This document shows positions 148-19,332 of a stretch of 34,574 nucleotides of DNA, one piece after another. A program made the position numbers and the translations under genes. The stretch spans positions 1-34,574 of the forward strand of contig CAIVQM010000017.1 in NCBI GenBank assembly GCA_903908025.1, written 5' to 3'. The notes under the pieces were generated by a model. It saw only the letters and a program-made list of their open reading frames with translations, searched no databases and had not been told where the DNA came from. The stretch is from an uncultured bacterium (lineage in GTDB: Bacteria > Actinomycetota > Actinomycetes > S36-B12). Every line of letters begins with the position of its first letter. Position 1 is the stretch's first letter.

Positions 148-2838
148 GTGATGACCGAGAAGTGGTACGCGCTCTCGCCCGAGGATGTCGCCGAGACGCT
201 GGCCGTGGACCCTGCGAACGGGCTGTCGGCGGCGAAGGCTGCCGAACTGCTGAAGGCCAACGGGCCCAACGCTCTCCCGGCGGAGAAGTCCCCGCCGGCA
301 TGGCATCAGTTCCTCGCTCAGTACAAGTCCTACATGCAGATCATCCTCGTCGCTGCGGCGATCGCATCGATTCTCATCGGCCAGATCACGACCGGCGTGG
401 CGGTCCTGGTGATCACGGCGCTGAACGCGCTGGGTGGAATGCGGCAGCAGGGCAAGGCGGAGAGCGCCATGAACGCGCTGCAGTCGATGCTCAAGACCAC
501 GGCACGGGTACGTCGCGACGGCACCGAGGTGCAGGTCGATGCCGACCAGGTGGTCATCGGTGACGTCGTGCTGCTGGCGGCCGGTGATGACGTGTGCGCT
601 GACGGACGCATCATCCAGGCATCGTCCTTGCAGATCGACGAGTCGGCGCTGACGGGCGAGAGCGTTCCCGCCTCGAAGAGCGCCGACGTCATCACTGATG
701 CGAACCCGGTCCTGGGAGACCAGGTGAACATGGCGTTCATGAACACGCCGGTCACGCACGGAAACGGCATCATGATCATCACCGGGACCGGCGCGGACAC
801 CGCCGTCGGCAACATCTCGGGGATGCTGAAGTCGGCCCCGGCGCTGAAGACCCCGATGACCAAGCAACTGGACACGCTCACGCTGTGGATCGCCGCTGCA
901 GCCGGCCTGACCATCGCGATCATGTTCGCCCTGGGGATCTCTCGCGGAGAGTCCACCCAGGTCATCTTCACCACCGCCATCGCGCTGGCGCTGGCCGCCG
1001 TCCCGATGGCCATGCCGACCGTCCTGCAGGTGATCCTGTCCGGCGGGTCCCGGGATCTGGCCGCGCACGGCGCCGTCGTGAAGAGCCTCGACGCGGTGGA
1101 GACCCTCGGCTCCACATCCGCCATCAACTCGGACAAGACCGGGACGCTGACGATGAACCAGGTCACCGTCGTCGAGGTCATCGACCCCACGGATCATTTC
1201 ACGGTCAGCGGGATGGGCTACGGCCTCGAGGGGGAGGTCCATCACTCCGCCGGCAACACCAACACCATCGAGGCGGCGATCCTGCCGTTCCTGATCACCA
1301 ACGACGCCAAGCTCGTCGATGGGAAGGTCGTCGGCGACCCCACCGAGGGCGCGCTCCTGGTCCTGGGCCACAAGGCGAAGCTCGACATCGAGGGCACCCA
1401 GGCGGCCTATCCGCGGCTTGCCACCCTGCCGTTCGATCCCACCTACAAGCTCATGGCCGCCTTCTGCGACGCCACGGACGAGCAGGGCAACGCTGTCGTC
1501 CGCATCTTCGTCAAGGGTGCCGCCCCGGCAGTGATCGGCCGGGCCACGTCCGCCCTGGCGAAGGGCAAGAGCGTCCCGTGGACTGCCGACGCCGGTACCC
1601 GCACCGATGGCGAGATGGCGCGCCTCGGCGGCAAGGGACTGCGGATCATGGCCGCGGCCATGAAGGACATGGACCCCAAGGACTTCACCCCCGACGGCGA
1701 CCTGCTGTCGATGGTCCAGGGCCTGCAGATGACTGCCATCGTCGGGATGATGGATCCGCCACGGGCGGAGTCCCTTGACGCGGTCCGTGCAGCGCAGGAT
1801 GCGAACATCCGCGTCCGGATGGTCACCGGAGACGATGTGGTCACCGGAGCGGCGATTGCAAAGCAGCTAGGCATCCCCGGTGAGGCGATCCTGGGAACGG
1901 AGCTCGCGGCGATGTCCGACGAGGAGCGCCGGGACCGGATCGACAGCATTGGCGTTGTTGGCCGCGTGGCACCCGAGCACAAGGTACTGATGGTCGAGAC
2001 GCTGCGCGCGGAGGGAGACGTCGTGGCCATGACCGGCGACGGCGTCAATGATGCGCCGGCCATCAAGGCCGCTGATATCGGCATCGCGATGGGCACGGGC
2101 ACCCAGGTCGCCAAGAACGCCGGCAAGATGATCCTCACCGACGATAACTTCGCCACCATCGTGCGCGCGGTGTCGGTGGGCCGCAAGGTCTACGACAACA
2201 TGCTGAAGTACATCCGCTTCATGCTCGTCGCGCTTGTCACCTACGTCGTGACGTTCCTGATGGCGAGCCTGCTAAACATCGCCGGGGGCCAGCCGTTCAC
2301 GGCAGTGCAGATCCTGTGGATCAACTTCATCATCACCGCACCGGTCGGCATCGCCTTGGGCTTGGATCAGGCGACGCCCGGACTCATGAAGCGCAAGCCC
2401 CGACCCCGGTCCTCGAAGATCATGTCCCCGGCGGTCATGGTCACGGTGGGCCTTGCCGGAGTGTTCATGTCGGTGGCCATCAACCTGCTGATCATCCTCG
2501 GCGAGAATCATTACGACAGCGGCGTGATCGGCAGCACTATGGGCCTCGTGGCGTTCTCGCTCATGCTGGTGATCGCCGCGTTCGAGTCACGCGACGAGAA
2601 GGCGTCCGTCCTCACCTCGAAGACATTCGACAACAGGACCGTCAACCTCACCGCGATCGCCGAGGTCGTGCTGGCCATCCTGATCGCCGAGGGCGCGTTC
2701 CTTCCCCCGCTGCTCGGAACGACCCAGCTGACGGGCAACCAATGGCTGATCGGCGCCATGCCGGCCGTGGTCCTGCTCATCGGTTGGGAGTTCGGCAAGC
2801 TCATTGCCCGCCGTCGGGCGGCTTCGCCGCCCTCCTAG
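148..2838 (+). CDS. Cation-transporting P-type ATPase (P2-type, Ca2+/Mg2+-like)
   Basis: 896-aa ORF with an N-terminal cation-ATPase-N-like region. Carries the actuator motif LTGESVP, phosphorylation motif DKTGTLT, MVTGD, and hinge motif TGDGVNDAPAIKAADIGIAMG, plus multiple hydrophobic TM segments at both ends. Start is GTG 148 or ATG 151, preceded by purine-rich gaagaggaagagga. Stop is TAG 2836-2838. Confidence 0.9.
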   Translation: MMTEKWYALSPEDVAETLAVDPANGLSAAKAAELLKANGPNALPAEKSPPAWHQFLAQYKSYMQIILVAAAIASILIGQITTGVAVLVITALNALGGMRQQGKAESAMNALQSMLKTTARVRRDGTEVQVDADQVVIGDVVLLAAGDDVCADGRIIQASSLQIDESALTGESVPASKSADVITDANPVLGDQVNMAFMNTPVTHGNGIMIITGTGADTAVGNISGMLKSAPALKTPMTKQLDTLTLWIAAAAGLTIAIMFALGISRGESTQVIFTTAIALALAAVPMAMPTVLQVILSGGSRDLAAHGAVVKSLDAVETLGSTSAINSDKTGTLTMNQVTVVEVIDPTDHFTVSGMGYGLEGEVHHSAGNTNTIEAAILPFLITNDAKLVDGKVVGDPTEGALLVLGHKAKLDIEGTQAAYPRLATLPFDPTYKLMAAFCDATDEQGNAVVRIFVKGAAPAVIGRATSALAKGKSVPWTADAGTRTDGEMARLGGKGLRIMAAAMKDMDPKDFTPDGDLLSMVQGLQMTAIVGMMDPPRAESLDAVRAAQDANIRVRMVTGDDVVTGAAIAKQLGIPGEAILGTELAAMSDEERRDRIDSIGVVGRVAPEHKVLMVETLRAEGDVVAMTGDGVNDAPAIKAADIGIAMGTGTQVAKNAGKMILTDDNFATIVRAVSVGRKVYDNMLKYIRFMLVALVTYVVTFLMASLLNIAGGQPFTAVQILWINFIITAPVGIALGLDQATPGLMKRKPRPRSSKIMSPAVMVTVGLAGVFMSVAINLLIILGENHYDSGVIGSTMGLVAFSLMLVIAAFESRDEKASVLTSKTFDNRTVNLTAIAEVVLAILIAEGAFLPPLLGTTQLTGNQWLIGAMPAVVLLIGWEFGKLIARRRAASPPS

Positions 2839-2865
2839 GGCGGGTGACGAGATCCGTCGGGCGGC
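2812..2865. repeat. Left copy of a ~54-nt direct repeat (att-like), overlapping the last 9 codons of the ATPase
   Basis: cgtcgggcggcttcgccgccctcctagggcgggtgacgagatccgtcgggcggc matches 5775-5827 at roughly 48 of 54 positions (5 substitutions and a 1-nt indel, counted by eye). The core gggcgggtgacgagatccgtcg is identical in all copies. Confidence 0.8.
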
Positions 2866-2944
2866 AACATCTGCACGACCTCTGTCCCACGGGGATGACC
2901 CTGGCCGCGGAGATCTACCTGCGCGCGGTCAGCAGCAATGTTCG

Positions 2945-4144
2945 CTAGTCCAGTTGCCCCGCACGTTCGCGTTCGTAGAGCGGCGCGGATTCGATGATTC
3001 CGAATATCTCGTCGGCCAGCCAATATCGACGACGTCCGTGCCCACCGCGGACCTCCAGTGCGCGGATCCAGTCCCGCTCCTCCGCATCTCGGATGAGGTT
3101 TCGGGCTCCCTGGTTCGTCACCCCGAGGGCTCGCTCGACACGTCGCACCGTCAGGAACGGGTTGGCGAACATGAGAGGGATCAGTTCGCCGACTCGTGAT
3201 CGTGATCCGGTCGCGGAGGCGAAGTAGACCTCGCGCACCTTCACTAGTCGGGCCGCACGGTCGATACCGTCGAGCGCCTGCCGATGCACGGCGGTCAGGA
3301 AGAACTGAAGCCACTCCTGGATCTCGCCGCGCTCCCTCACGGCCTGGAGCCTCTCGTAGTACTCGCGGCGGTGGCTCTCCAAATAGCCCGATAGATAGAG
3401 GAGCGGCGTAGTCAGTCTGCCCGTCTGCTGGAGGTGGAGCCCGATGATGAGTCGACCGAGGCGCCCATTGCCGTCTAGGAATGGGTGGATGGTTTCGAAC
3501 TGGTAGTGCATGAGCGCGCAGTTCACCAGCGTCGGAAGCGTTGCTGGTTCGTTCACGAAGCGCTCCCAGTCGGCAAGCAGGTCACCGAGATGCTCGGGCA
3601 GCGGAGGAACGAAGAGCGCGGTTTCGGGGCTGTCGGTGGGTGAGCCGATCCAGACGGGGCTGCGTCTCAACTCCCCGGGCTGACGCTCCTCGCCCCGAAC
3701 ACCAGTCAGGAGCTCCTTGTGCACTTCAACGACGAGTCGTTGCGTGAGTGGCATGGACTTGATCCGCTCAAGGCCGACGTGCGTGGCCGTCACGTACGCC
3801 TCGACCTCGGCGATGTCGTCGTTCTGGACGGCTGGGTCGTCGCCCTCGGCACCGGCCTGGAGTACCTGAGCGAGCGAGGCCTGGGTTCCCTCAATCCGTG
3901 TACTCGCGAGAGCCTCACGGGTGATGTAGGGGCCGATCAGCAGCTGAGGATCCGGGATCAGGTGGCCAAGTCCCTGAAGCTGGCCGAGTGCAAGGTCGGC
4001 CTCAGAGAGGACGAGGACGGTCGCTGGATCCAAGTCCAGCTGCCTCGGGATCGGGGCCGGCTCGAAGTACCAGAAGGCCCACTTGTCACCCGGCCGCCGG
4101 GTGGGCTTTCCGAACGCATCGTTCGTGAACTTGCTTGGATCCAT
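2945..4144 (-). CDS. Fic family protein (class II, N-terminal autoinhibitory helix, C-terminal winged-HTH-like tail); putative AMPylase
   Basis: 399-aa ORF. The canonical Fic motif HPFLDGNGRLGR is encoded at 3452-3487. The inhibitory-helix motif (S/T)xxxE(G/N) appears as STRIEG at 3887-3904. The C-terminal segment LTVRRVERALGVTNQGARNLIRDAEE looks like an HTH. Confidence 0.88.
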   Translation of the reverse strand: MDPSKFTNDAFGKPTRRPGDKWAFWYFEPAPIPRQLDLDPATVLVLSEADLALGQLQGLGHLIPDPQLLIGPYITREALASTRIEGTQASLAQVLQAGAEGDDPAVQNDDIAEVEAYVTATHVGLERIKSMPLTQRLVVEVHKELLTGVRGEERQPGELRRSPVWIGSPTDSPETALFVPPLPEHLGDLLADWERFVNEPATLPTLVNCALMHYQFETIHPFLDGNGRLGRLIIGLHLQQTGRLTTPLLYLSGYLESHRREYYERLQAVRERGEIQEWLQFFLTAVHRQALDGIDRAARLVKVREVYFASATGSRSRVGELIPLMFANPFLTVRRVERALGVTNQGARNLIRDAEERDWIRALEVRGGHGRRRYWLADEIFGIIESAPLYERERAGQLD

Positions 4145-4475
4145 GTGGAGATACTACAACGCAAAAGGGTGTCGTGTTGGAGTAGTGAGGCCTGAGACCA
4201 ACCTCAGTTTGAGTTGCGGGCCTCTCAAGCAACGGAAGCCGGTCCGATTTGGTGTGAGGGCCGGCGCATCGCCGAACGTATGGACGAGCTGGTGCAGGAC
4301 CCCGGCAGTGTCCGAGGGATGAAGAGCCGGTCCACTCGACGATGCTCCAAATGAGCCATGCTGTCGTCGTTGTGATCGATTGAGCGGTAAGCGTTCACAA
4401 CAACTTGCATATCCGGGCAGCATACAGTTGCATAGTCGGGTATTAGAAGGTTGCGGATTCGGGTACGATCAACTC

Positions 4476-5726
4476 ATGGAGTATCGCCCGCGGGTCGCAG
4501 ACGCAGCCATGACTGACCTGTTGGCGGCGTTGGGCGGGGTTCTCGTCGAGGGTCCTCGCGGATGCGGGAAGACCACCACGGCGCTGCAGCACGCGCGCAG
4601 CCACGTCCGCCTGGACTCCGGTCCAAACGTGCTCGAGTTGGCTTCCCTCGATCCGTTGGGGCTGCTTACCGGTGCAGCCCCCCGGCTGGTGGACGAGTGG
4701 CAACTGGCTCCGACGCTGTGGAACGTCGTACGGCATGAGATCGATGCCCGGAGGGAACCAGGGCAGTTCATCCTGTCGGGATCGTCCAGTCCCGCGAGAG
4801 ACCCGTCGCGTCACTCCGGGGCCGGTCGCATCGGCCGCCTACGCATGCGGACCATGACACTGGCGGAATCGGATCGGTCCTCGCAGGCGGTGTCACTTGC
4901 CGACCTGCAGTCCGGCGAACCGATCTCTGGCAGGAGTCAGCTGACCTACCGCGATCTGGCCGAGGCGGCGATCGTCGGAGGCTGGCCCGCACTGCTGCGA
5001 GCGAGTCACCGCCAGGCCGTCGCGTTCAACCGTTCCTACCTCGATGACCTGTGCACCAGCGCGATTCCGCTTGCAACCGGGGTCAGGCACGACCCGGTGC
5101 GCCTGCGTCGCCTGCTGGAATCGGTGGCCCGGAACATCGCGAGCGAAGCGACGCTGGAGAGCCTGGCCGCTGACGTCTCCGCGGACGGTGGCGCATTCGA
5201 CCCGAAGACGGCTCGCACGTACCTCGATGCGCTCACGACAGTGTTCGCCCTCGATGAGCTCCCTGCGTGGAGTGTGGCCCTGCGCTCGAGGTCGCGGCTT
5301 CGCACGAGCCCCAAGCTTCACCTGGCCGACCCAGCACTGGCGTGCGCGGCCCTGGGGGTGAATGCCGACAGGCTCGCGAAGGACCCGGCGTTCTTCGGGC
5401 AGGTCTTCGAGTCGCTCGTCACCCGTGACCTGCGCAGCATGGTCGAAGCACGATTCGGCCGGGCTTACCACTACCGCGACAACACCGGCCTGGAGGTCGA
5501 CCTCATCCTGGAGTTCGAGGACAGGACGTGGGCCGCCATCGAGGTCAAGCTCGGCGGCTCCCGCATCGCCGAGGCCGAGAAGAGCCTGCTCATGCTTCGC
5601 GATGCACGGGTGGACCTGGCTCGAGTCGGGCCTCCGGTGTTCCTCGCCGTGGTTACTGGAACCGAGTACGCCTACACGCTGCCGACTGGAGTCCACGTCG
5701 TGCCTCTCGCGGCACTCGCATCGTGA
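4476..5726 (+). CDS. AAA-family ATPase with C-terminal DUF4143-like (PD-(D/E)xK nuclease-fold) domain
   Basis: Walker A GPRGCGKTT (4551-4577) and Walker B-like RLVDEWQ. The C-terminal GLEVDLILEF..AAIEVKLG (5493-5549) fits a D..ExK restriction-endonuclease-like motif. The track ORF starts at TTG 4380; ATG 4476 (MEYRPRV...) is the more likely start. Confidence 0.8.
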   Translation: MEYRPRVADAAMTDLLAALGGVLVEGPRGCGKTTTALQHARSHVRLDSGPNVLELASLDPLGLLTGAAPRLVDEWQLAPTLWNVVRHEIDARREPGQFILSGSSSPARDPSRHSGAGRIGRLRMRTMTLAESDRSSQAVSLADLQSGEPISGRSQLTYRDLAEAAIVGGWPALLRASHRQAVAFNRSYLDDLCTSAIPLATGVRHDPVRLRRLLESVARNIASEATLESLAADVSADGGAFDPKTARTYLDALTTVFALDELPAWSVALRSRSRLRTSPKLHLADPALACAALGVNADRLAKDPAFFGQVFESLVTRDLRSMVEARFGRAYHYRDNTGLEVDLILEFEDRTWAAIEVKLGGSRIAEAEKSLLMLRDARVDLARVGPPVFLAVVTGTEYAYTLPTGVHVVPLAALAS

Positions 5727-5774
5727 CCTGAACGTGAGTCCGCCTGTACGCCAGCCACCGTTTGGCCAATGAAG

Positions 5775-5870
5775 CGTCGGGCGGCTGCGCGGCTCTCCTG
5801 GGCGGGTGACGAGATCCGTCGAGCCGCTGCGCGGCTCTCCTGGGCGGGTGACGAGATCCGTCGAGCCGCT
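5775..5870. repeat. Right copy of the ~54-nt direct repeat, extended into a perfect 42-bp tandem duplication (units 5784-5825 and 5826-5867)
   Basis: The unit gctgcgcggctctcctgggcgggtgacgagatccgtcgagcc occurs twice back to back with no mismatch. The first copy, with its 5' flank cgtcgggcg, aligns to 2812-2865. Confidence 0.9.
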
Positions 5871-5891
5871 GCCACTCCGCGACGGATCTCG
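5852..5891. repeat. Perfect 12-bp inverted repeat (stem-loop) formed between the last tandem unit and flanking DNA
   Basis: cgagatccgtcg (5852-5863) and cgacggatctcg (5880-5891) are exact reverse complements separated by a 16-nt loop. Confidence 0.75.
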
Positions 5892-5906
5892 GCGTGTTTC
5901 CCATAC

Positions 5907-5950
5907 CAATGAAGAGGACCCCCCGGAACTACGGGGGGTCCTCTTCATTG
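5907..5950. terminator. Strong GC-rich hairpin immediately 3' of tRNA-Gly (likely terminator, usable from both strands)
   Basis: caatgaagaggacccccc (5907-5924) pairs perfectly with ggggggtcctcttcattg (5933-5950): an 18-bp stem with an 8-nt loop. It abuts and overlaps the encoded CCA end of the tRNA. Confidence 0.7.
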
Positions 5951-6022
5951 GAGCGGGTGACGAGAATCGAACTCGCACTGTCAGCTTGGGAAGCTGATGT
6001 TCTACCATTGAACTACACCCGC
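5949..6022 (-). tRNA. tRNA-Gly (anticodon CCC), CCA encoded
   Basis: The reverse complement reads GCGGGTG-TA-GTTC-AATGGTA-GAAC-A-TCAGC-TTCCCAA-GCTGA-CAGT-GCGAG-TTCGATT-CTCGT-CACCCGC-T-CCA. This gives a full cloverleaf with 7-bp acceptor, 4-bp D, 5-bp anticodon and 5-bp T stems. The T-loop is TTCGATT and the discriminator is U73, as expected for bacterial tRNA-Gly. Confidence 0.95.
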
Positions 6023-6139: not shown

Positions 6140-7060
6140 ATGAGGCGGTTGCGGCTCGCGGGTCTCGTGGCCCTTGTTGTGTGCCTGGGTGTTCTGGCTG
6201 TGCCTGCGCAGGCCGCCGGGGAAAAGTCGGGTGGCCCCTGCTCGATTGCCGGCAATCGCATCCGCACCCACGGTGTCGTTCTCGTCTGTGTCAAGAAGGG
6301 CGCCCGCAAGGTGTGGGTGGTGGATCAGGGCGGTTCGACGAGCCCGGGTACCGCAGGGCCGGGGGGCGGAAGCGAGTCGGTCTCGACTGCCGGCCTGCCG
6401 TCCATAACGTCGTTTCGAACGGCGGGATCGGATCGCCTTCCGGTGGATATGAGCACCACGGCGGGCACGGCACCCTTCTATGGAACGGACTCGGAGACGC
6501 CCCATCCAGGCGTGCACGTCCTGTGGAGCAACTTGACCGGACGTTGGACAGCGGCGGGCGGCTCACATGTCGTGACTGCCTATCCCGCCCTCTATGCCGT
6601 GGCGGATGGGGTGGTGGCTCGTATCGACCCGAGCAAGCAGGTCGGACCCAACCAGGCTTATGAAGTCGACTTGGCCATTGCCAAGGACTCCGCCGGTCGG
6701 GTGTTCATGGTCAGTTACGGCCTTGAGCCGTTCGCGCAGGAGCCGTCGCGGGGCTTCTATGAATCCTTCATCAAGGTCAAGGTCGGCCAGAAGGTCAAGA
6801 AGGGCGCCATCCTCGCCTACATGTACGTACCGCCGGACTCGACGGGCTCCACGCACATGCATCTGCACCTCCAGGTGATGTCCTCGAGTGGCGGGTTCCT
6901 CTCGCCATCGATCTTCGCCCCCCCGGCAGTGGCCCAATTTGCGGCCGGCTACGCCACGCGAGATGGCCAGGCGACCGGCGTGACCGTGCCCGCCTGCATC
7001 GGCTGGAAGGTCAGCGCGGCCGAGAACCCCTACGGGACCGGCGCGGCTACCTGCCTGTGA
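6140..7060 (+). CDS. Secreted protein with degenerate M23/LytM-like C-terminal domain
   Basis: Sec-type signal peptide MRRLRLAGLVALVVCLGVLAVPAQA. The M23-like layout is YAVADGVVARI ... VKVGQKVKKGAILAYM ... GSTHMHLHLQV (HxH motif). No clear upstream HxxxD motif was seen. Confidence 0.5.
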   Translation: MRRLRLAGLVALVVCLGVLAVPAQAAGEKSGGPCSIAGNRIRTHGVVLVCVKKGARKVWVVDQGGSTSPGTAGPGGGSESVSTAGLPSITSFRTAGSDRLPVDMSTTAGTAPFYGTDSETPHPGVHVLWSNLTGRWTAAGGSHVVTAYPALYAVADGVVARIDPSKQVGPNQAYEVDLAIAKDSAGRVFMVSYGLEPFAQEPSRGFYESFIKVKVGQKVKKGAILAYMYVPPDSTGSTHMHLHLQVMSSSGGFLSPSIFAPPAVAQFAAGYATRDGQATGVTVPACIGWKVSAAENPYGTGAATCL

Positions 7061-8208: not shown

Positions 8209-8254
8209 GCAGCTACCTCTGGTGCAAAACGCGTTTCGGACCTAGCCTCCGACC

Positions 8255-8944
8255 ATGGCGCAGGCTCTGGTCCTCTCACCACGGCGGTTTCCTGCCGTCG
8301 TGATAGTCCCGGCCGCGGTGCTTGTCCTCGCTGGCTGGGTGGTGCTGGCCCTGGCGCGAGATCATGCGTCGGCGTCCACCTTCACGGCCATGTGGCTTGC
8401 GATGTCAGTGGCGATGATGATCCCTACAGTGGCCCGTCCGCTACTGAAGGCGGCCGAGGGCTCCGTTGGTCGGGCACTGGGATTTGTGAGCGGTTTCGTC
8501 CTCATCTGGGCGATCGCCGGCATTCCGTCCTTCGTCGTCATGAATGCGGTCGCGTGGACGACCGGCTGGATCGCTGCCATGTGGATCGCAGCCGGCGCGT
8601 ACCAGTTGACGCCGCTCATGCAGCGCCATGTCATCACCTGCCGCTCGATCCGCTTCGATGATGATCCGTTGCGTTACGGCTTGCGCCAGGGACTGCGCTG
8701 TGTGGCGTCATGCTGGCCGGTCATGATGGCCGTGATGCTCACGGCGATGGCGCTGCCGGGAACGGCTCTGCCGCTGCTCGCCTTGGTCGGCGTCACCGTG
8801 CTGTTGTGCTGGGAGAAGCGGCCGCAGACCACGACACGCTCCCTTGCTGCGGTCGGCATGGCCATGCTCCTCATAGCAACCGGCGGAGTCGTGCTGTTCG
8901 GCGGCGGCACCGTCCATCACTCAATGGGCTCGTCCAAGTCATAG
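8255..8944 (+). CDS. Multi-pass membrane protein, DUF2182-like (predicted metal-binding integral membrane protein)
   Basis: 229 aa with about 6 hydrophobic helices. The pattern GAYQLTPLMQRHVITCRS ... GLRCVASCWPVMM ... CWEK matches my memory of the DUF2182 Cys-containing signature. This was not verified by search. Confidence 0.55.
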   Translation: MAQALVLSPRRFPAVVIVPAAVLVLAGWVVLALARDHASASTFTAMWLAMSVAMMIPTVARPLLKAAEGSVGRALGFVSGFVLIWAIAGIPSFVVMNAVAWTTGWIAAMWIAAGAYQLTPLMQRHVITCRSIRFDDDPLRYGLRQGLRCVASCWPVMMAVMLTAMALPGTALPLLALVGVTVLLCWEKRPQTTTRSLAAVGMAMLLIATGGVVLFGGGTVHHSMGSSKS

Positions 8945-9459
8945 CCCCGCGCGATGTCGCCGACCTCGACCAGCGTGATGTCCGTTCGTTCGCGAAGAAA
9001 GCCTCGGGCTCCTTGGTCGCCTTGGGCATGCTCGCGGATCCCGTTCCAGTGCTTGCGGGTGAAGAGAACCGGGTGGCCGCGCTCGCCCTCGTAGGTCGCA
9101 ATAACGATGTCATCTGGGCACGCCACGACCCGGCGCACGGCATCTGCGGTGAGGCCCGGCAGGTCAACGAGGGTGATCGCGACGCGCTCCACTTCCGTCC
9201 TGTGCTCGAGCGCCGTCAGTCCAACGCGCAGCGACGATCCCATCCCCTCGGCCCAGTCGGCGTTCAGCGCCACTTCCGCGTCGGGCACGTCGCCGACCCA
9301 GGCACCAAGAACGACGACGACGGGATCACAGCCGACTTCCCTCAGCAGCCGAACCGCTCGGTCGACAAGGCGCTCCCCGTCCAAGACAACGGGTGCCTTC
9401 GGCTGGCCGTAACGGCTGCCCGCACCAGCAGCAAGGACAAGACCGGCGATGCCACTCAC
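8917..9459 (-). CDS. mocA: Molybdenum cofactor cytidylyltransferase (MobA-like NTP transferase)
   Basis: 180 aa. The N-terminal LVLAAGAGSRYG nucleotide-binding signature is that of the MobA/MocA family. Its GTG start overlaps the xdhC stop (GTGA). The context is an MCD-dependent CO dehydrogenase. Confidence 0.75.
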   Translation of the reverse strand: MSGIAGLVLAAGAGSRYGQPKAPVVLDGERLVDRAVRLLREVGCDPVVVVLGAWVGDVPDAEVALNADWAEGMGSSLRVGLTALEHRTEVERVAITLVDLPGLTADAVRRVVACPDDIVIATYEGERGHPVLFTRKHWNGIREHAQGDQGARGFLRERTDITLVEVGDIARGYDLDEPIE

Positions 9460-10562
9460 CGTGGCGCGCCCGGGTGGATCGGCCCGTCAGTGCCGGCCAA
9501 GTGTCGGCCGCTGCCTCCCCACCGTGCCTGGATGATCTCCGCGGCGATCGAGATCGCGGTCTCCTCGGGTGTCCGTGAGCCGAGGTCGAGCCCGATCGGT
9601 GAGTGCAGGCGGGATAGTTCGTCATCCGTGAGCCCCGCCTCCTTGAGGCGCGCGAGTCGATCCTCGTGCGTACGACGTGAGCCCATCGCACCCACGTAGC
9701 CCGCGTTTGTTCGCAGCGCCACGGTGAGCGCTGGGACATCGAACTTCGGATCATGCGTCAGCACGGCGATGACAGTGCGCTGGTCGACGTGCTGCTTCTC
9801 GAGCCAGCGATGAGGCCAGTCGACGACCACCTCGTCGGCCTCGGGGAAGCGCTTGCGCGTTGCGAAGACAGGCCGAGCATCGCAGAGGGTCACGCGGAAG
9901 CCGAGGAGTTTCCCGACCCGGACGAGCGCGGCCGAGAAGTCAATGGCGCCGAAAACGAACATCTGCGGTGGAGGCGCGTAGCTGGCAACAAAGACGTCGA
10001 GGCCCTCACCGAGACGTTCTCCCTCGGGGCCGTAGTGCAGGAATCCAGTGGTTCCCGAGGCGAGCATGCCGATGACGTCCTCGCGCACGGTGTCATCGAG
10101 ACGCTCGGTGCCCAGCGTTCCCTCGGCGTGATCGGGTCTGACCACGAGGTGGCGTCCTACGAAATGCGGACCGTGCACGATCGTCGCGATGGCAACCGGC
10201 TCCTCTGCCGCGAGGGATGCGGCGATGCCAGCCAGTTCCGGCCACGTCTGGTCATCGACCCGTTCGACAAATACTTCGAGGATGCCGCCGCAGGTGAGCC
10301 CAACGGCGAACGCATCGTCGTCGCTGACCCCGTAGGTCTCGAAGCGGGCCTGGCCGTCCGCGAGCACTTCCTGGCCCACCTCGAACAGTGCGCCTTCGAC
10401 GCAGCCCCCGCTGACGGAACCCACGGCCTCGCCTGCATCGGTCACGAGCATCGACGCGCCGGCCGGACGTGGAGCGGAGCGCCACGTTCGCACAACGGTT
10501 GCCATCGCTGCGCTTCCGCCTCGCTCTCGGATGGCGATCAGCTCCGCGAGAACCTCACGCAT
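9456..10562 (-). CDS. XdhC/CoxI family molybdoenzyme maturation chaperone
   Basis: N-terminal XdhC_CoxI-like region (AMATVVRTWRSAPRPAGASMLV) plus a Rossmann-like XdhC_C region (MFVFGAIDFSAALVRVGKLLGFRVTLCDAR). The track ORF extends to 10733, but ATG 10562 (MREVLAEL...) avoids overlap with moaE and fits the family length. Confidence 0.8.
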   Translation of the reverse strand: MREVLAELIAIRERGGSAAMATVVRTWRSAPRPAGASMLVTDAGEAVGSVSGGCVEGALFEVGQEVLADGQARFETYGVSDDDAFAVGLTCGGILEVFVERVDDQTWPELAGIAASLAAEEPVAIATIVHGPHFVGRHLVVRPDHAEGTLGTERLDDTVREDVIGMLASGTTGFLHYGPEGERLGEGLDVFVASYAPPPQMFVFGAIDFSAALVRVGKLLGFRVTLCDARPVFATRKRFPEADEVVVDWPHRWLEKQHVDQRTVIAVLTHDPKFDVPALTVALRTNAGYVGAMGSRRTHEDRLARLKEAGLTDDELSRLHSPIGLDLGSRTPEETAISIAAEIIQARWGGSGRHLAGTDGPIHPGAPR

Positions 10563-10623
10563 GCGGGCTCCCTCCCTGACAGTTCCGCAGGCCCGTTCGG
10601 GCCAAGGGGTCAATAATGGCCCG

Positions 10624-12581: not shown

Positions 12582-12827
12582 TCAGCCGCCGGCGAACGGG
12601 GGCAGTACATCGACGCGGCTTCCCGACGCAATGTCGACATCACCGTGCGCGCTCACCCCATCGATCAGGTAACTGCAGCGCGGACGCACGGCGGTGAATG
12701 CCGGATGCTCCGACTCGATCTGGTTGAGGATGGCGGAGAGCGACCCTGCTGGCATGGACAAAACGGATGCTGAGACGGCCGCCCGGGCGGCCGCGAAGAG
12801 GTGAATCTCCACCGTGGTAGCTGCCAT
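12582..12827 (-). CDS. moaD: Molybdopterin synthase sulfur-carrier subunit (MoaD/ThiS family)
   Basis: 81 aa of ubiquitin-like size, ending in PPFAGG (C-terminal Gly-Gly). Confidence 0.8.
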   Translation of the reverse strand: MAATTVEIHLFAAARAAVSASVLSMPAGSLSAILNQIESEHPAFTAVRPRCSYLIDGVSAHGDVDIASGSRVDVLPPFAGG

Positions 12828-12981
12828 CCGTCGAGCCTATGCCGCGTCCGGTGAGTCCACCACCGCCGGTAATTGATTTCCCCTCGCGCATGCGTTCAGA
12901 CGGGTCTATGGTGACGCGCATCACGAACTTCGGTTCCCAGTTTCGCACCGAGTGAGCTGGCGCCCCTGTCCCGGAGGATCA

Positions 12982-13620
12982 ATGGAACTCGGGAATTCAT
13001 TTGTCGTGCCAGCCGATATCGACACGGCGTGGAAGACGCTCCTGGACGTGGAAGCCATCGCACCCTGCATGCCGGGAGCAAAACTCACCTCATTCGACGG
13101 CGACAACTTCACGGCCGACGTAAAGGTCAAGCTGGGCCCTGTGACGATGAACTTCGCCGGTGCCGGCAAATTCGTCGAGAAGGACGAGGCCAACCACAAG
13201 GCCGTCATTGACGCCACGGGCAAGGAGACCAAGGGAGCCGGCTCGGCGGCGGCCCTCATCACTGCGGTCCTAGTCGCGGAAGGCCCCAACAGCACGCGCG
13301 CGAACATCATCACTGATCTGACCGTCACCGGGAAGGCTGCACAGTTCGGCCGTGGTGTGATGGCGGATGTCTCCAAGCGGCTTATCGACCAGTTCGCCGG
13401 AAACCTTGAGCAGGTCATCGTCTCTCGGCAAGGCGTGGCGACGGCTGCGGCTGCGGGCGGCGAGCCGGTGGCAGCACCCCCTGCACCTGCACCCGTGCTC
13501 AACAACGATGCCCTCGACCTCGGCAATGCCGCGCTGGTTCCGGTCCTGAAGCGTGTTGTCCCCATCGTCATCGGCATTGCTGTCGTTGTCGGCGTCATCA
13601 TCTGGATCGCGAACCGCTAA
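12982..13620 (+). CDS. coxG: CoxG-like SRPBCC protein with Ala/Pro linker and C-terminal TM anchor
   Basis: ATG 12982 (MELGNSFVVPADIDTAWKTLLDVE...), preceded by ggagga. SRPBCC/CoxG-like core, then AAAGGEPVAAPPAPAP, then the hydrophobic tail VVPIVIGIAVVVGVIIWIA. Confidence 0.75.
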   Translation: MELGNSFVVPADIDTAWKTLLDVEAIAPCMPGAKLTSFDGDNFTADVKVKLGPVTMNFAGAGKFVEKDEANHKAVIDATGKETKGAGSAAALITAVLVAEGPNSTRANIITDLTVTGKAAQFGRGVMADVSKRLIDQFAGNLEQVIVSRQGVATAAAAGGEPVAAPPAPAPVLNNDALDLGNAALVPVLKRVVPIVIGIAVVVGVIIWIANR

Positions 13621-13697
13621 GCCGTCCGTCTCTGTGCATCGCCCAGTTCCACCCGTCAGATCCCCCGCACCATTCGCCGAGAGATAAGGGGTCACAG

Positions 13698-14567
13698 ATG
13701 CAAACACCCGCAGCTGTCGACTATGTCAGGGCCACTTCGGTAGCCAATGCCATCGCCCTGCTGAATGAGCATGGTGAGGACGCCCGGTTGCTGGCTGGTG
13801 GACACAGCCTGCTTCCGATGATGAAGCTGAGACTTGCCAGGCCCGACATCCTCATCGACATCAATGATCTCGACGAGTTGCGCGGAATCCGAGTGGAGGG
13901 CGACGAGCTGGTGCTCGGCGCAATGGTCACCCACGCCGAGGTGCTCTCATCGCCGATACTTGCCGAGCACTACGCGATCTTCCGCGAGGCTGAGAAGGTC
14001 ATCGCCGATCCCATCGTCCGCAATAAGGGCACCGTCGGCGGATCCATGTGTCAGGCCGACCCGTCTGAGGATCTCTCGGCCGTGGGCGCGGCACTCAAGG
14101 GCTCTGTGGTGATCCAGAACGCGACCGGGACGCGCACCGTGCCGCTTCGCGAGTTCCACGAGGGACCGTATGAGACGAAGGTCGCGGACGGCGAGATCCT
14201 TACCGAGGTGCGATTCCCCATTCGACCAAGAGCCGGGAGTGCATACGAGAAGGTCGAACGTCGGGTGGGTGACTGGCCCGTGTGCTCCGCGGGGGCGTAC
14301 GTGGTCGTCTCCGGTGGAGTTGTAACCGACGTCGGCATCGGCCTGACGGCCGTTGGGGCCGAGCATTTCTGCGCGCCGGAGGCGGAGGCCTTCCTGATCG
14401 GCAAGGCGCCGAGCGAGGAGAACTTGGCTGCTGCCGCCCAGTTGGCCGCTGACTCCTGCTCGCCCAACGCAGACCAGCGTGGCCCTGCCGACTACAAGCA
14501 GCATCTCGCCATGGAATTGACACTTCGTGCGCTTCGTCGCGCGGCCGCCTCGAGCCAGGGAGCCTGA
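13698..14567 (+). CDS. coxM: CO dehydrogenase medium (FAD-binding) subunit
   Basis: 289 aa with an FAD-binding molybdopterin-dehydrogenase domain (LLAGGHSLLPMMKLR). It is the first gene of an M-S-L arrangement. Confidence 0.85.
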   Translation: MQTPAAVDYVRATSVANAIALLNEHGEDARLLAGGHSLLPMMKLRLARPDILIDINDLDELRGIRVEGDELVLGAMVTHAEVLSSPILAEHYAIFREAEKVIADPIVRNKGTVGGSMCQADPSEDLSAVGAALKGSVVIQNATGTRTVPLREFHEGPYETKVADGEILTEVRFPIRPRAGSAYEKVERRVGDWPVCSAGAYVVVSGGVVTDVGIGLTAVGAEHFCAPEAEAFLIGKAPSEENLAAAAQLAADSCSPNADQRGPADYKQHLAMELTLRALRRAAASSQGA

Positions 14568-14568
14568 C

Positions 14569-15048
14569 ATGGAGATCACGATCACGATCAACGGCGAGCA
14601 GGTGACTCGCGACGTTGAGCCGCGCACCCTGCTCGTCCATTTCATTCGCGAGGACGCGGGGCTGCGAGGCACACATTGGGGATGCGACACGTCGAACTGC
14701 GGAACCTGCACCATCTGGGTCGACGAGAAGCCGGTCAAGAGCTGCACGATGCTCGCGGCACAGGCAGACGGACATTCGGTCACGACGGTCGAGGGACTGG
14801 AGAAGGGCGGCGTGCTGGATCCGATCCAGCAGGGCTTCATCGAGTGCCACGGCCTGCAGTGCGGATTCTGCACTGCAGGAATGATGCTGACCGGACGAGC
14901 ACTGCTCGACGAGAACCCGCACCCTTCAGATGACGAGATCCGCGAGGCAATCTCCGGCCAGATCTGCCGGTGCACCGGTTACAAGAACATCGTCAAGGCG
15001 ATCCAGTGGGCCGCCGACAACCCCGCCACAAGTGAGGTGACCGCATGA
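14569..15048 (+). CDS. coxS: CO dehydrogenase small ([2Fe-2S]) subunit
   Basis: ATG 14569 (MEITITINGEQV). Two cluster motifs: CDTSNCGTC and CGFCTAG...CRCTGY. The stop overlaps the coxL start (ATGA). Confidence 0.9.
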   Translation: MEITITINGEQVTRDVEPRTLLVHFIREDAGLRGTHWGCDTSNCGTCTIWVDEKPVKSCTMLAAQADGHSVTTVEGLEKGGVLDPIQQGFIECHGLQCGFCTAGMMLTGRALLDENPHPSDDEIREAISGQICRCTGYKNIVKAIQWAADNPATSEVTA

Positions 15049-17492
15049 CCGCTGTTGACGAGGCGCCGCTGAGCGCCGCAGGAAACCCGATCGGGTTCGG
15101 CTCGATGAAGCGTGTTGAGGATCAGCGCTTCGTGCGCGGGCAAGGCAACTACGTCGATGACGTGAACCTGCCGGGCATGCTGCACAGTGCGATTCTGCGC
15201 AGCCCGTTTGCGCATGCGCGCATTGTCTCCATCGACACCTCGGCAGCCGAGGCGCTACCGGGCGTGGTGGCCGTCATCACGGGGAAGATCCTTGAGGGCA
15301 TCCCGCGACCGTCGCTTCTTGGAGACAACTTCGCCTGGATGCCCACGCTGTCCTACGACACGCAGGCAGTTCTGGCCACGGACAAGGTTCGTTTCCAGGG
15401 CCAGGAGGTCGCATTCGTCATCGCGGAAAGCCGCTACATCGCAAAGGATGCACTCGAGCTCATCGATGTGGAGTATGAGCCCCTTGAGCCGGTCATGGAT
15501 GCCAAGAAGGCACTGGATGCCGATGCACCCATCATCCGTGATGACAAGGGACAGACGGACAACCGCATCACCGACGTCCACGGCAACCAGACCTGGGAGT
15601 CAGGTAACAAGGAGGCGACTGAGGCGGCTTTTGTGGCTGCAGCGGCGGATCCGAACTGCGTGATCGTCGAGGAGGACATCCTTTACCCGCGGGTGCACCC
15701 GGCACCGATGGAGACCTGCGGTTCGGTGGCGTACCTCGACAAGGTGACCGGGCAGCTGACTCTCTACACGACAAGCCAAGCGCCGCACGCTCACCGCACG
15801 GTCTACGCGATGGTCGCGGGGCTCCCTGAGCAGAAGATCCGCGTCATCAGCCCGGACATCGGTGGCGGCTTCGGCAACAAGGTCGGCGTCTACCCCGGCT
15901 ATGTCCTCTCGGTCATCGGCACCATCGTCACCGGAAAGCCGGTGAAGTGGATGGAGGACCGCAGCGAGAACCTGATGTCGACGTCGTTCGCGCGGGATTA
16001 CCACATGAAGGCGAAGATCGCGGCGACCAAGGACGGCAAGATCCTGGCTGTCGATGTGTATGTGCTTGCTGACCACGGCGCATTCAACGGAGTGGCCCAG
16101 CCGACGAACTTCCCGGCTGGATTCTTCAACATTTTCTCCGGTTCGTACGACTACCCGAACGCACATTGTCTGGTGGAGCCCGTCTACACCAACAAGGCGC
16201 CGGGTGGTGTCGCGTACGCGTGCTCCTTCCGCATCACGGAGGCCGCCTACGTCATCGAACGGCTCGTCGACTGCCTCGCGCAGGAACTCGAGATGGATCC
16301 GGCTGACCTGCGGCTGAAGAACCTGATCAAGCCGGAGCAGTTCCCGTACACCTCTCCTACCGGTTGGGAGTACGACTCCGGCCAGTACGAGAAGACGATG
16401 CGCGTGGCCATGGATATCGCCGGCTACGACGAGCTTCGCCGTGAGCAGGCGGAGAAGCGTGCCAAGGGTGAGTACATGGGCATCGGCATCTCGTTCTTCA
16501 CAGAGGGAGTCGGGGCCGGACCACGCAGGACGATGGACATCCTCGGTCTGGGAATGGCCGACGGCATCGAGCTGCGAGTGCATCCCACCGGCAAGGCGGT
16601 GCTGCGACTCTCAGTGCAGAGCCAGGGCCAGGGTCATGAGACGACGTTCGCGCAGATCGTCTCGCACGAGCTCGGCATTCCGCCGGAGGACATCGATGTC
16701 GTCCACGGCGACACCGACCAGACGCCGTTCGGCCTGGGCACCTACGGTTCGCGGTCGACGCCAGTGTCGGGTGCGGCCGCCTCGGTAGTCGCGAAGAAGG
16801 TTCGCGACCGCGCTCGGATCGTCGCAGCTGCGGCCCTCGAGTGCTCGCCGGACGATCTTGAGTGGGAGCTCGGCCGATGGTTCGTCAAGGGTGACAAGGA
16901 ACGCGGCAAGACGATCCAGGAGATCGCACTGCTGTCGCATAGCTCCCTGGAGTTGCCTGAGGGCGTTGAGGGACACCTCGACGCGACGGCGGTCTACAAC
17001 CCGCCGAACCTCACGTACCCGTATGGCTGCTACATCTGCGTCGTCGACGTGGATCCCGGCACCGGGCAGGTCAAGGTCCGTCGCTTCATCGCCGTCGACG
17101 ACTGCGGTGTGCGGATCAACCCGATGATCGTCGAGGGTCAGGTGCACGGCGGCCTGGCAGATGGCGTCGGCATGGCCCTGATGGAGCTCATCGCATTCGA
17201 CGAGGACGGCAACAACCTCGGCGGGTCCTTCATGGACTACTTGCTGCCAACGGCAGTCGAGTGCCCCGATTGGGAGTTGGGCGAGACGGTCACGCCGTCA
17301 CCGCATCACCCGATCGGTGCCAAGGGTGTCGGGGAGTCGGCCACCGTGGGTTCACCCGCGGCGGTCGTCAACGCGGTCATCGATGCGATCAGCCCATTCG
17401 GGGTGAGGCACGCTGATATGCCGCTGACGCCGGCGAATGTGTGGCGGGCCATTCAGGGTCGCAACGTCCGCACGGACATGGCTGTCGAGTAG
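15045..17492 (+). CDS. coxL: Form I aerobic CO dehydrogenase large (Mo-Cu, molybdopterin) subunit
   Basis: 815 aa of the aldehyde oxidase/xanthine dehydrogenase molybdopterin-binding family. Contains the form-I active-site loop AYxCSFR as VAYACSFR (16212-16232). Gene order coxM-S-L is characteristic of form I. Confidence 0.85.
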
Positions 17493-17541
17493 TCCGCTTG
17501 CGGGGGTTCTCCTCGCGATCAGAAGAGGAGACACTGGCGTC

Positions 17542-18435
17542 ATGACCACGCGGGCATTGCACGAACGGGCTGAGCGGCTTCGAGCCGACGGAATCCCCTT
17601 TGTGCATGCCCGCGTGGTGCTTGCCGAGCGTCCGACGTCCGCCAAGCCGGGCGACGAGGCCCTCGTGTTGGAGGACGGCAGTATCGAGGGATTCGTCGGC
17701 GGCCAGTGCGCTGAGGCGACAGTGCGGGCGCAGGGGCTCGCTGCGATGGCGTCGGGTGACACAGTGCTGCTGCGCATCTCGCCGTCGCCAGAGCCAGCCC
17801 AATCAGGCAAGGTCGTCGTGCACAACCCCTGCCTGTCCGGTGGGACTCTGGAGATCTTCATGGAGCCTGTTCTGCCCGCACCGATGGTCCGTGTCATCGG
17901 CCACAGTCCGATCGCAAATGCGCTCGCGACGGTCGGTGCCGCTCTGGGCTATCAGGTCGAGCCGTGGTCGCTCGCGGAGATGCGATCCACCGACGCCGTC
18001 GTCGTCGCGTCGCATGGGTTCGACGAGGAGAAGTCGCTCGTGGACGCCCTCGACGCTGGCATTCCGTATGTGGGCCTGGTGGCGAGTCCGAAGCGGGGTC
18101 GGGCGGTCATCGATTCACTTGATGTGGACGACGCCCTCAAGGCACTCGTTCACACTCCAGCTGGGCTCGACATCGGCGCACGGACGCCTGAAGAGGTGGC
18201 GCTGTCCATCTTCGCGCAGATCATTGAGGAGCGGTCGGCTCCGCATCGCATCCGCTCGCTGCCGCTCTTGACTGAGCCAACTTCGGTAACGGCGATCGAT
18301 CCGATCTGCAAGATGTCTGTTGCTGCCGCCCCGACATCGATCCATGTCGATGTCGATGGAATCCGCTATTACTTCTGCTGCCCCGGCTGCAAGGACACCT
18401 TCCTCGTCGACCCGACTAGCCACATCGGGGCCTGA
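17542..18435 (+). CDS. XdhC/CoxF-like maturation factor fused to a C-terminal YHS (TRASH-type metal-binding) domain
   Basis: ATG 17542 (MTTRALHERAERLRADGIPFVHARVV...). XdhC N-domain plus a Rossmann-like region (VRVIGHSPIANALATVGAALGY). The C-terminal DPICKMSV...GIRYYFCCPGCKDTF matches the YHS signature. Confidence 0.75.
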   Translation: MTTRALHERAERLRADGIPFVHARVVLAERPTSAKPGDEALVLEDGSIEGFVGGQCAEATVRAQGLAAMASGDTVLLRISPSPEPAQSGKVVVHNPCLSGGTLEIFMEPVLPAPMVRVIGHSPIANALATVGAALGYQVEPWSLAEMRSTDAVVVASHGFDEEKSLVDALDAGIPYVGLVASPKRGRAVIDSLDVDDALKALVHTPAGLDIGARTPEEVALSIFAQIIEERSAPHRIRSLPLLTEPTSVTAIDPICKMSVAAAPTSIHVDVDGIRYYFCCPGCKDTFLVDPTSHIGA

Positions 18436-18441
18436 GCACCG

Positions 18442-19326
18442 ATGTCTCTCGTTGATCTCGTTCCTGATGCCGCGTCTTTGACGAGTCAACTCGCAGAGCA
18501 TGACTACCTTGCGGAGCCGGGTCTCGCGACGGCGCTCTTCTGTGCCGTCCGTCTGCCGCAACCCCTGCTACTAGAGGGCGAGGCGGGAGTCGGAAAGACG
18601 CAGGCTGCCAAGTCCTTGGCGCAGATGCTGGATACTCCACTCATCCGACTGCAGTGCTTCGAGGGCATCGACGCATCAGAGGCCCTCTACGAGTGGAACT
18701 ACCCGCGGCAGCTCCTTGGTATCCGGGTGGCCGAGGCAAAGGGATCTGATCTTGCGGAGGACTCGCTGTTCTCGCGCGAGTACCTCATCGAGCGTCCGCT
18801 GTTGCAGGCCCTCGAGCACCCGGGGCCGCGGCCGGCGGTGCTCCTCATAGACGAGGTCGATCGCGCTGATGAGGAGTTCGAGGCCTTTCTCTTCGAGATG
18901 CTCGCGGAGTCCGCCGTGACGGTGCCGGAGATCGGCACCTTGACGGCGAAGGTTCCGCCCGTTGTGATCCTCACGTCGAACCGCACGCGCGATCTTCACG
19001 ATGCGCTGAAGCGCAGGTGCCTGTATCACTGGATTGATTACCCGGATCTCGAGCACGCCACCCGGATCGTGCGCCTGCGAGTTCCGGAGGCGCCACCGGA
19101 ACTGACGGCACAGGTGGCATCCGCCGTGCAGCGCCTGCGGGGGATCGACGTCCAGAAGCCACCGGGCGTGGCCGAGGCGATCGACTGGGTGCATGCAGCG
19201 ATGCTGCTCGGTATCTCGACGCTCGATGCCGCGACCGTGGAGCAGACGCTGGGATCGGTGCTGAAGTACCGAGAGGACCAGGACCTCGCGCGTGCCGAGG
19301 GCCTGGCTTGGGTCGCCGGATCCTGA
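18442..19326 (+). CDS. coxD: MoxR-type AAA+ ATPase (CoxD)
   Basis: 294 aa with Walker A GEAGVGKT and Walker B LLIDEVD. MoxR-like length, positioned immediately before a VWA protein. Confidence 0.85.
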   Translation: MSLVDLVPDAASLTSQLAEHDYLAEPGLATALFCAVRLPQPLLLEGEAGVGKTQAAKSLAQMLDTPLIRLQCFEGIDASEALYEWNYPRQLLGIRVAEAKGSDLAEDSLFSREYLIERPLLQALEHPGPRPAVLLIDEVDRADEEFEAFLFEMLAESAVTVPEIGTLTAKVPPVVILTSNRTRDLHDALKRRCLYHWIDYPDLEHATRIVRLRVPEAPPELTAQVASAVQRLRGIDVQKPPGVAEAIDWVHAAMLLGISTLDAATVEQTLGSVLKYREDQDLARAEGLAWVAGS

Positions 19327-19332
19327 TGCTCC

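Follow-up and report, generated by a model that had tools for sequence, protein, structure and literature searches.

A tRNA-Gly(CCC) islet with a SoFic-type Fic gene and a PDC-S01-type AAA gene in an actinomycete genome, and a 23-nt repeat array upstream of the AAA gene

The stretch of DNA analyzed here (the window) comprises 34,574 nucleotides of contig CAIVQM010000017.1 (assembly GCA_903908025.1) from an uncultured actinomycete of the GTDB lineage S36-B12. Between a P-type cation ATPase gene and a tRNA-Gly(CCC) gene it contains a small islet of 2.9 kb with two genes transcribed away from each other, one encoding a class II Fic protein and the other an AAA ATPase fused to a DUF4143 part, referred to below as the AAA gene. 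The question raised by this locus is whether the two genes form an undescribed sensor-effector system, as was proposed in a preliminary description of the sequence, or are neighbours that work independently. The islet is best explained, and with good probability, as an accreted remnant at a tRNA-Gly(CCC) hot spot in which two autonomous single-gene modules stand back to back. Judged by sequence comparison, both genes belong to already catalogued single-gene (candidate) anti-phage modules and do not make up a new two-gene system. The features in question are as follows.

148-2838, plus strand: P-type cation ATPase gene, left flank (Pfam E1-E2_ATPase and Cation_ATPase_N/C)
2812-2865: left direct repeat, about 1.3 units of a 42-nt repeat, with its core at 2838-2859; left boundary of the islet
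2945-4144, minus strand: SoFic-type class II Fic gene, 399 amino acids, with Fic_N, Fic and a candidate C-terminal winged helix-turn-helix (wHTH), from Pfam, PADLOC and PDB matches and motif alignment
4145-4404: Fic-proximal part of the spacer, with palindromes at 4192-4207 and 4366-4404
4405-4473, plus strand: three 23-nt direct repeats, with units at 4405, 4428 and 4451
4476-5726, plus strand: AAA_14-DUF4143 gene, 416 amino acids, with a P-loop AAA+ ATPase, a helical/wHTH middle and a C-terminal PD-(D/E)xK part
5775-5872: right direct repeats, 2.3 tandem 42-nt units, with pseudo-tRNA cores at 5800-5821 and 5842-5863
5906-5951: hairpin with a perfect 20-bp stem, directly next to the tRNA 3' end
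5949-6022, minus strand: tRNA-Gly(CCC) (ARAGORN; Rfam tRNA, 72.9 bits), with its 3' end toward the islet

The genes, tRNA, spacer and repeats named in the preliminary description were all recovered at or near their expected positions. The divergent genes are separated by a spacer of 331 bp (4145-4475) that is lower in GC as described (0.56, against 0.65-0.66 for both the islet and the window), the direct repeats of about 54 nt are real (2812-2865 matches 5775-5828), and the segment is devoid of an integrase, the Fic and AAA genes being its sole genes. No other gene was called between the P-type ATPase gene and tRNA-Gly, and a 99.95%-identical contig whose genes were called independently shows the same AAA start and no extra gene in the interval. 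The AAA gene starts at 4476 and not at the longest open reading frame start of 4380; its homologues are 416 or 405 amino acids in length and begin MEYRPR or MTDLL.

Two single-gene families and their pairing

The Fic protein contains the Pfam domains Fic_N (2e-21) and Fic (4e-16). Among the PADLOC profiles it matches SoFic over the full length (2.3e-104, profile positions 7-359 of 361), and its best sequence matches in the PDB are SoFic and EcSofic (3EQX, 9TCH and 9VJC, 1e-31 to 7e-36, approximately 30% identity), extending to residue ~341. The candidate C-terminal wHTH scores 22.5 bits against Pfam HTH_13, below the cutoff of 26.1, and lies within the part covered by the SoFic profile, which is matched to position 359 of 361. 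Across 22 homologues the inhibitory motif STRIEG (residues 81-86, including E85) is invariant apart from T82, and the catalytic motif HPFLDGNGRLGR (residues 220-231, including H220) is invariant at 9 of its 12 positions and at least 90% conserved at the others. Profile and alignment evidence identifies the protein as a homologue of the SoFic family, and not as an equivalog or orthologue. SoFic is a class II Fic protein and a single-protein defence that is toxic via AMPylation, and its catalytic-histidine mutant H194A is non-toxic (PMC12249575); the same source, citing Millman et al. 2022, has it acting as a single gene. It AMPylates EF-Tu and, as a dimer, binds its own promoter over the first ~100 bp (bioRxiv 10.64898/2026.07.09.737422). 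No AS1-like small antitoxin gene was called downstream of the window Fic gene, where just 106 nt remain to the stop codon of the convergent P-type ATPase gene.

The nearest Fic homologue among 5.8 billion proteins is 80% identical. The closest homologues with usable context are found at two loci, designated L246, where the gene lies just after an excisionase and an integrase beside Wadjet genes, and L247, where it lies among other Fic genes. A PRiA4_ORF3-domain gene (L081:5351-5899) adjoins the closest species-representative Fic homologue (72% identity), and a PRiA4_ORF3 gene also neighbours a 97%-identical AAA homologue, which may be a coincidence or a shared type of mobile context.

The AAA protein contains DUF4143 (1e-33) and AAA_14 (1.6e-10) in Pfam, and residues 1-414 match the PADLOC profile PDLC04790 of PDC-S01 (3.4e-73, profile positions 8-417 of 422). 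Conservation was assessed over 79 homologues from bacteria and archaea at 40-100% identity, in which the Walker A residues of GPRGCGKT (G26, G31, K32, T33), the Walker B residues of LVDEW (D73, E74) and the nuclease residues E312, D342, E356 and K358 (E...D...ExK) are each at least 95% conserved. In an AlphaFold2 (AF2) model the nuclease residues are held in a C-terminal alpha-beta-beta-beta-alpha-beta unit predicted with high confidence (pLDDT 87-98); from its characteristic residues and the model, the C-terminus is assigned to the PD-(D/E)xK-type nuclease fold. DUF4143 is listed among the PD-(D/E)xK families (PMC3424549). PDC-S01 itself is an unvalidated candidate nominated by 'guilt-by-embedding' in defence systems, consists of an ATPase fused to PD-(D/E)xK, and is reported as the fourth most common defence type in prokaryotes (PMC12988326). 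Many AAA homologues in the sequence databases are 91-97% identical, and only 6 homologues were found in phage records.

The domain reading of the preliminary description is borne out by these results, both for a class II Fic protein with an intact catalytic motif and the inhibitory helix STRIEG (Pfam, 22-homologue alignment) and for an AAA ATPase fused to a PD-(D/E)xK-like DUF4143 part (Pfam, conserved residues, AF2 C-terminus), and the defence flavour that it gave to both genes agrees with the SoFic and PDC-S01 matches in PADLOC. Its proposal of a two-gene sensor-effector system is not supported, given the lack of co-occurrence, the single-gene families to which the proteins belong and the retention of the AAA gene without Fic. 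Each gene falls in a single-gene family in PADLOC, and neither matches a multi-gene model. The neighbourhoods (±6 kb, one genome per species) of 80 Fic homologues of 48-72% identity were searched with a profile built from the AAA homologues, which recovered its positive controls, the window protein and a 45%-identical paralogue, at 1e-162; a DUF4143 gene was found near the Fic homologue at 0 of the 80 loci. In the reverse search, with a Fic profile and a motif search, Fic-family genes were found near AAA homologues at 3 of 80 loci, at distances of 4.5 kb and 3 kb in two of them and adjacent in tandem in the third, and none was divergent. Neither gene has a recurrent partner among its nearest neighbours (121 and 130 proteins, by clustering and Pfam scans), and the 80 Fic homologue loci, together with L246 and L247, yielded no recurrent partner for Fic. 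Conserved partner genes for either Fic or AAA were rejected, as no neighbour family was present in more than ~5% of the loci by all-against-all clustering and Pfam scans. As counted in these loci, there is no conserved gene order or co-occurrence beyond loose clustering in defence islands; in substance, the figures being taken without a formal background frequency, this is the chance-level co-occurrence that the preliminary description named as refuting its proposal.

Related genomes carry the AAA gene with and without Fic. The contig designated L164 (GCA_965061645.1), the islet's closest relative, has the same islet at the same tRNA-Gly/dcd locus, with an intact AAA gene (95% amino acid identity) and a Fic gene that is a shattered pseudogene of four fragments of 19-45 codons (residues 1-36, 89-107, 135-161 and 313-357). 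In this stretch (L164:1819-2323, corresponding to window 2838-4248) the fragments follow one another across clean internal deletions, and the att-like core, the spacer and the AAA gene are conserved. In L163 the AAA protein is 95% identical, Fic is absent and similarity to the window starts at 4356. A contig encoding a 97%-identical AAA protein has no Fic gene, its neighbours being PRiA4_ORF3 and a Gp49/HTH pair, and in L165 the AAA gene (83% amino acid identity) is found among housekeeping genes, again with no Fic gene. The pairwise ratio of non-synonymous to synonymous substitution rates (dN/dS) of the AAA gene is 0.10-0.12 against L164, L163 and L165, and purifying selection has kept the gene intact in genomes with a missing or decayed Fic. 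Sister genomes that lack an intact Fic gene yet conserve the AAA gene show that the latter is kept without the former, and a two-gene system is therefore not supported. Such genomes, with Fic intact, fragmented or absent beside the same conserved AAA gene, represent a natural experiment.

The Fic-proximal part of the spacer (4145-4404) is 92% conserved in L164, contains the palindrome CTGAG-N6-CTCAG at 4192-4207 and presumably includes the Fic promoter. A scan of the region with the sigma-70 consensus gave no match, a result that is uninformative for a high-GC actinomycete. An imperfect palindrome at 4366-4404 (GTCGTTGTGATCG-N13-CGTTCACAACAAC) is located just upstream of the 23-nt array; its 13-nt arms are perfect in L164, and in L163 the match to the window starts 10 nt before it. 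An 88-nt segment between 9-nt direct repeats AGCCGGTCC (window 4237-4333) is absent in L164 and represents a short-direct-repeat indel.

The repeat array upstream of AAA_14-DUF4143 genes

The last 70 nt of the spacer consist of three 23-nt direct repeats. Each starts with TTGCnnAnnCGGGnA, a 15-nt motif that occurs 3 times where 0.01 would be expected. The last unit holds a -10-like TACGAT (4464-4469) 6 nt before the ATG, a position which suggests that the AAA transcript is leaderless. In ~65 of 76 regions upstream of AAA homologues the best period comes to exactly 23 nt, with 51 at p <= 0.01 by shuffling, compared with 3 of 150 control regions upstream of neighbouring genes. The copy number per array is 2-11 (median 3.6), and the distance from the end of the array to the start codon has a median of 38 nt. 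Arrays are present in Actinobacteria, Gemmatimonadota, Bacteroidota and Spirochaetes, and among the archaea in Thermoplasmata, Methanomassiliicoccaceae and Nitrososphaerota. By locus, L163-L245 and L001 were seen to have an array ahead of their AAA genes, and that of L230 was left out, its apparent perfect repeat being a run of N. The sequence of the unit drifts by lineage with a degenerate core nnTGAAAnnnnGCCAAATCaccc kept, and 53 of 58 arrays are oriented in the same way with respect to their gene. The core promoter overlaps or abuts the array in each of three lineages, as a -10 TAnnnT box inside the last unit in Actinobacteria, a TAnnTTTG box just after the array in Bacteroidota and a TATA box in the last unit in archaea. 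No description of the array was found in the literature searched, which covered DUF4143, COG1373, PDC-S01, AAA_14, guilt-by-embedding and 23-bp repeats.

The array accompanies the AAA gene in every context, and the AAA-proximal spacer therefore belongs to the AAA module alone. Since it follows the gene across two domains with differing host regulators, the AAA protein itself is the candidate binder, and the array would be an iteron-like operator; arrays with a 23-bp period resemble plasmid iterons. The AAA protein would bind the array via its middle wHTH region and oligomerise there via its AAA+ domain, and the bound protein would repress its own, probably leaderless, transcription, the repeats overlapping the -10 box. 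Once triggered, the ATP-driven nuclease would act on foreign or cellular nucleic acid. It is suggested tentatively, as a possibility that falls short of an even chance, that PDC-S01 is a two-part module consisting of a phased 23-bp iteron array and an ATPase-wHTH-nuclease that binds it, with the array as an unrecognised defining cis element. If this is true, the array could determine autorepression or keep the nuclease restrained on 'self' DNA, and could also explain the missing phenotype of a cloned PDC-S01 representative.

The significance of the array extends to the whole PDC-S01 family rather than to the present locus, and it may help explain how the family works. It provides a testable handle on the mechanism and the candidate defence role of PDC-S01, and if the AAA protein binds its own array, then validation constructs, the annotation of system boundaries and models of activation should include it.

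Origin of the islet at tRNA-Gly(CCC)

The 22-nt core GGGCGGGTGACGAGATCCGTCG is present in 3 copies in the window, against 0.02 expected by chance. It has 13 nt in common, in the same orientation, with the 3' end of the window's own tRNA-Gly, which reads TGGAGCGGGTGACGAGAATCGAAC. The equivalent core of L163 and of L001, the closest relative of the window in the P-type ATPase gene, has 17 nt in common with the tRNA of each, and the core co-varies with the tRNA at the single differing position (GACGAGA in the window and L164, GACGGGA in L001 and L163). The flanking repeats, being copies of the tRNA-Gly 3' end, can therefore be regarded as att-site remnants. On the right side the 42-nt unit is repeated in tandem 2.3 times at 5775-5872, and its last core pairs with 5873-5889; L164 has exactly two 42-nt units fewer there, and L001 and L163 have one pseudo-tRNA core each. 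On the left side the similarity between the window and L164 starts at the left core, which is kept at the same boundary in L164, and the left flanks of the two differ. Similarity to L001 stops at 2819, with C-termini of AASPPS in the window and PAVRV in L001, and the last ~6 codons of the P-type ATPase gene (from ~2820) are therefore taken to have been supplied by the left repeat.

L001 has a methyltransferase gene in place of the Fic and AAA genes, and in both L001 and L163 the anticodon loop of tRNA-Gly(CCC) is interrupted by an element whose first gene is a tyrosine integrase. The element in L001 (L001:6026-13158) carries a 45%-identical AAA_14-DUF4143 gene right after the integrase, plus a TrwC/MobF-like relaxase-helicase. 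The one in L163 (L163:3804-5118) is a second integrative element in the same tRNA-Gly(CCC), again with the tyrosine integrase first. From these comparisons the tRNA-Gly(CCC) locus is recognised as an integration hot spot that exists in at least four arrangements, and the islet as a horizontally acquired, integrase-less remnant bounded by att-like repeats. The view of the segment as accessory, repeat-bounded and tRNA-linked DNA thus gains support from the repeats, which are tRNA 3'-end copies, and from the boundaries in relatives. Of the features expected of a tRNA-targeted island, the direct repeats derived from the tRNA 3' end are present, and an integrase or excisionase inside is absent; the integrase that brought the islet in would since have been lost.

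The hairpin at 5906-5951 has a fold energy of -49.5 kcal/mol (z = -9.2) and is probably a bidirectional terminator. It is kept at the same place in L164, L163 and L001 with a different stem sequence, which resembles compensatory change. The fold of the 42-nt repeat region is no more stable than that of shuffled sequence, and an Rfam search over the region identified the tRNA only, with no other structured RNA in the spacer or the repeats.

The left flank of the islet was previously called a core P-type ATPase. Its identity as a P-type ATPase holds (Pfam), and its core status is doubtful, as homologues of ~80% identity occur in dozens of unrelated contexts and the islet of L164 has another left flank; the gene may itself be horizontally mobile cargo. 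The homologues at L002-L080 (78-94% identical) belong to many lineages of metagenome-assembled genomes and have no common neighbourhood, and in L025 the P-type ATPase gene is on the opposite side of the same tRNA-Gly. Further variable segments are located nearby, at window positions 6140-7060, 8210-10613 and 12704-20530, which are missing from the otherwise syntenic L164 and include an M23-like lipoprotein gene (on the tRNA 5' side) and a block among molybdenum-cofactor genes.

Alternative explanations and comparison with known systems

The islet is thus read as two autonomous modules, and the proposed working of the AAA module has been given above. For the Fic module, homology to SoFic (~30% identity) suggests that the protein would form a dimer restrained by its own inhibitory glutamate (E85) and that its predicted C-terminal wHTH would bind its own promoter. 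Unleashed, for example by phage infection, it would AMPylate a core target such as EF-Tu and cause translation arrest and abortive infection.

Several points weigh against this reading. For Fic, the score against the NCBIfam SoFic equivalog NF046030 is 158.6 bits, below the cutoff of 550, and at ~30% identity the AMPylation target may differ from that of SoFic. For the AAA protein, the N-terminal half of the AF2 model is of low confidence, and a fold search of the PDB with the whole model gave weak matches (best E = 7e-4, TM ~0.2) that include Card1/Cdn1 nucleases, Orc1/Cdc6 and archaeal AAA+ proteins and speak only qualitatively for an AAA+/wHTH/nuclease layout. Most immediate neighbours of AAA homologues are housekeeping genes and not defence genes, and one PDC-S01 representative gave no protection against T4, T5 and T7 in E. 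coli (bioRxiv 10.1101/2024.09.26.614923). A non-defence role of the AAA gene is possible; the defence role of both genes in the present organism is a predicted one, and binding of the array by the AAA protein is proposed because array and gene go together in bacteria and archaea alike. The fragments of Fic in L164 are 95-98% identical in DNA sequence to the window Fic gene, and the Fic/AAA pair is therefore ancestral to at least two genomes. A lineage-specific functional coupling of Fic and AAA via the shared spacer is a much less likely reading than the two-part module of array and AAA gene suggested above.

An unlikely alternative keeps the genes independent and removes defence from both, with Fic as a toxin-like addiction or regulatory module and the AAA gene and its array as a selfish or housekeeping DNA-transaction module, one version being an Orc1/Cdc6-like iteron-bound protein in element maintenance, partition or replication control. 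It is favoured by the housekeeping neighbours and the E. coli phage result just given, by the spread of AAA homologues across bacteria and archaea at 40-64% identity (80-locus set), by integrases adjoining some of them, by the iteron-like appearance of the 23-bp arrays and by the presence of Orc1/Cdc6 on origin DNA among the fold matches. Against it, the conservation of the nuclease catalytic residues points more to an effector than to a protein that only binds DNA, the gene has an array on just one side, unlike a two-ended transposon, and PDC-S01 was nominated for being embedded in defence systems (PMC12988326). The version in which the AAA protein is a plasmid replication initiator with iterons was rejected, as 191 of 72,556 plasmid records (0.26%) have a homologue, and all 30 listed are at least 23 kb in length, which does not suit a general plasmid replication initiator.

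The two-gene system with which the preliminary description began is very improbable. In it the NTPase-nuclease would sense infection and free or activate a latent Fic protein, or Fic would restrain the nuclease, under a shared divergent control region. The two genes are indeed adjacent and divergent around a 331-bp spacer, both families are linked to defence, the pair or its remnant is present at the same locus in two related genomes, and the candidate wHTH of Fic could act on the shared spacer. These points are set against the counts of 0 and 3 in 80 loci with no conserved arrangement, the lack of a match to any multi-gene PADLOC model, the intact AAA gene at a dN/dS of ~0.1 where Fic is absent or shattered, an AAA-proximal spacer that is a family-wide array and not specific to the pair, and SoFic, which functions as a single gene (PMC12249575, citing Millman et al. 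2022).

It is equally hard to credit that the 23-nt repeats act as RNA, as a repeat-derived antitoxin or guide that regulates the nuclease like ToxI of type III toxin-antitoxin systems: the tandem array directly upstream of a nuclease gene in a largely fixed orientation (53 of 58) recalls the ToxIN layout, but core promoter elements in or abutting the array in three lineages place most of it ahead of where transcription starts, each unit is short at 23 nt, the fold of the palindrome at 4355-4415, which reaches the first 23-nt unit only, is no more stable than that of shuffled sequence, no Rfam family is matched, and the AAA protein has a wHTH-like middle region.

With two autonomous modules retained as the preferred reading, the locus represents a two-gene mini defence islet whose components are already catalogued, of a sort that is common at tRNA hot spots. 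In its overall layout it resembles tRNA-linked genomic islands with tandem accretion of att remnants, in which cargo is bounded by direct repeats of the tRNA 3' end and the same tRNA holds integrase-bearing elements in relatives. It differs from them in having no integrase, in a 42-nt unit of which only ~19 nt are tRNA-like and which is tandemly amplified on the tRNA side, and in a left copy that overwrites the final codons of the neighbouring P-type ATPase gene.

The window Fic protein shares with SoFic an N-terminal helix and a Fic_N domain with (S/T)xxxE(G/N), the HxFx(D/E)GNGRxxR core and, probably, a C-terminal wHTH, and its gene has an upstream region of ~300 bp, as does the S. oneidensis gene (bioRxiv 10.64898/2026.07.09.737422). 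SoFic, a single-gene system in PADLOC and DefenseFinder, is known from Shewanella oneidensis and E. coli, whereas the window protein is ~30% identical and has an actinobacterial host, and the space downstream of its gene would not fit a small antitoxin gene of the AS1 type (PMC12249575).

The AAA gene and its array are comparable to iteron/Rep and Orc1/Cdc6-ORB arrays in having head-to-tail direct repeats spaced about two helical turns apart beside an AAA+/wHTH gene and a repeat sequence that drifts with the gene, and Orc1/Cdc6 is among the weak fold matches. The AAA protein differs in its conserved nuclease, and its homologues are rare on plasmids, with none on small plasmids among the matches listed. 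The resemblance is one of possible working and not of family membership. To PDC-S01 (AAA_14-DUF4143, COG1373) the window protein is alike throughout, with a full-length match, an ATPase joined to PD-(D/E)xK, a stand-alone gene and variable neighbours, and the upstream 23-bp repeat array is the feature that the present analysis adds to the description of that family.

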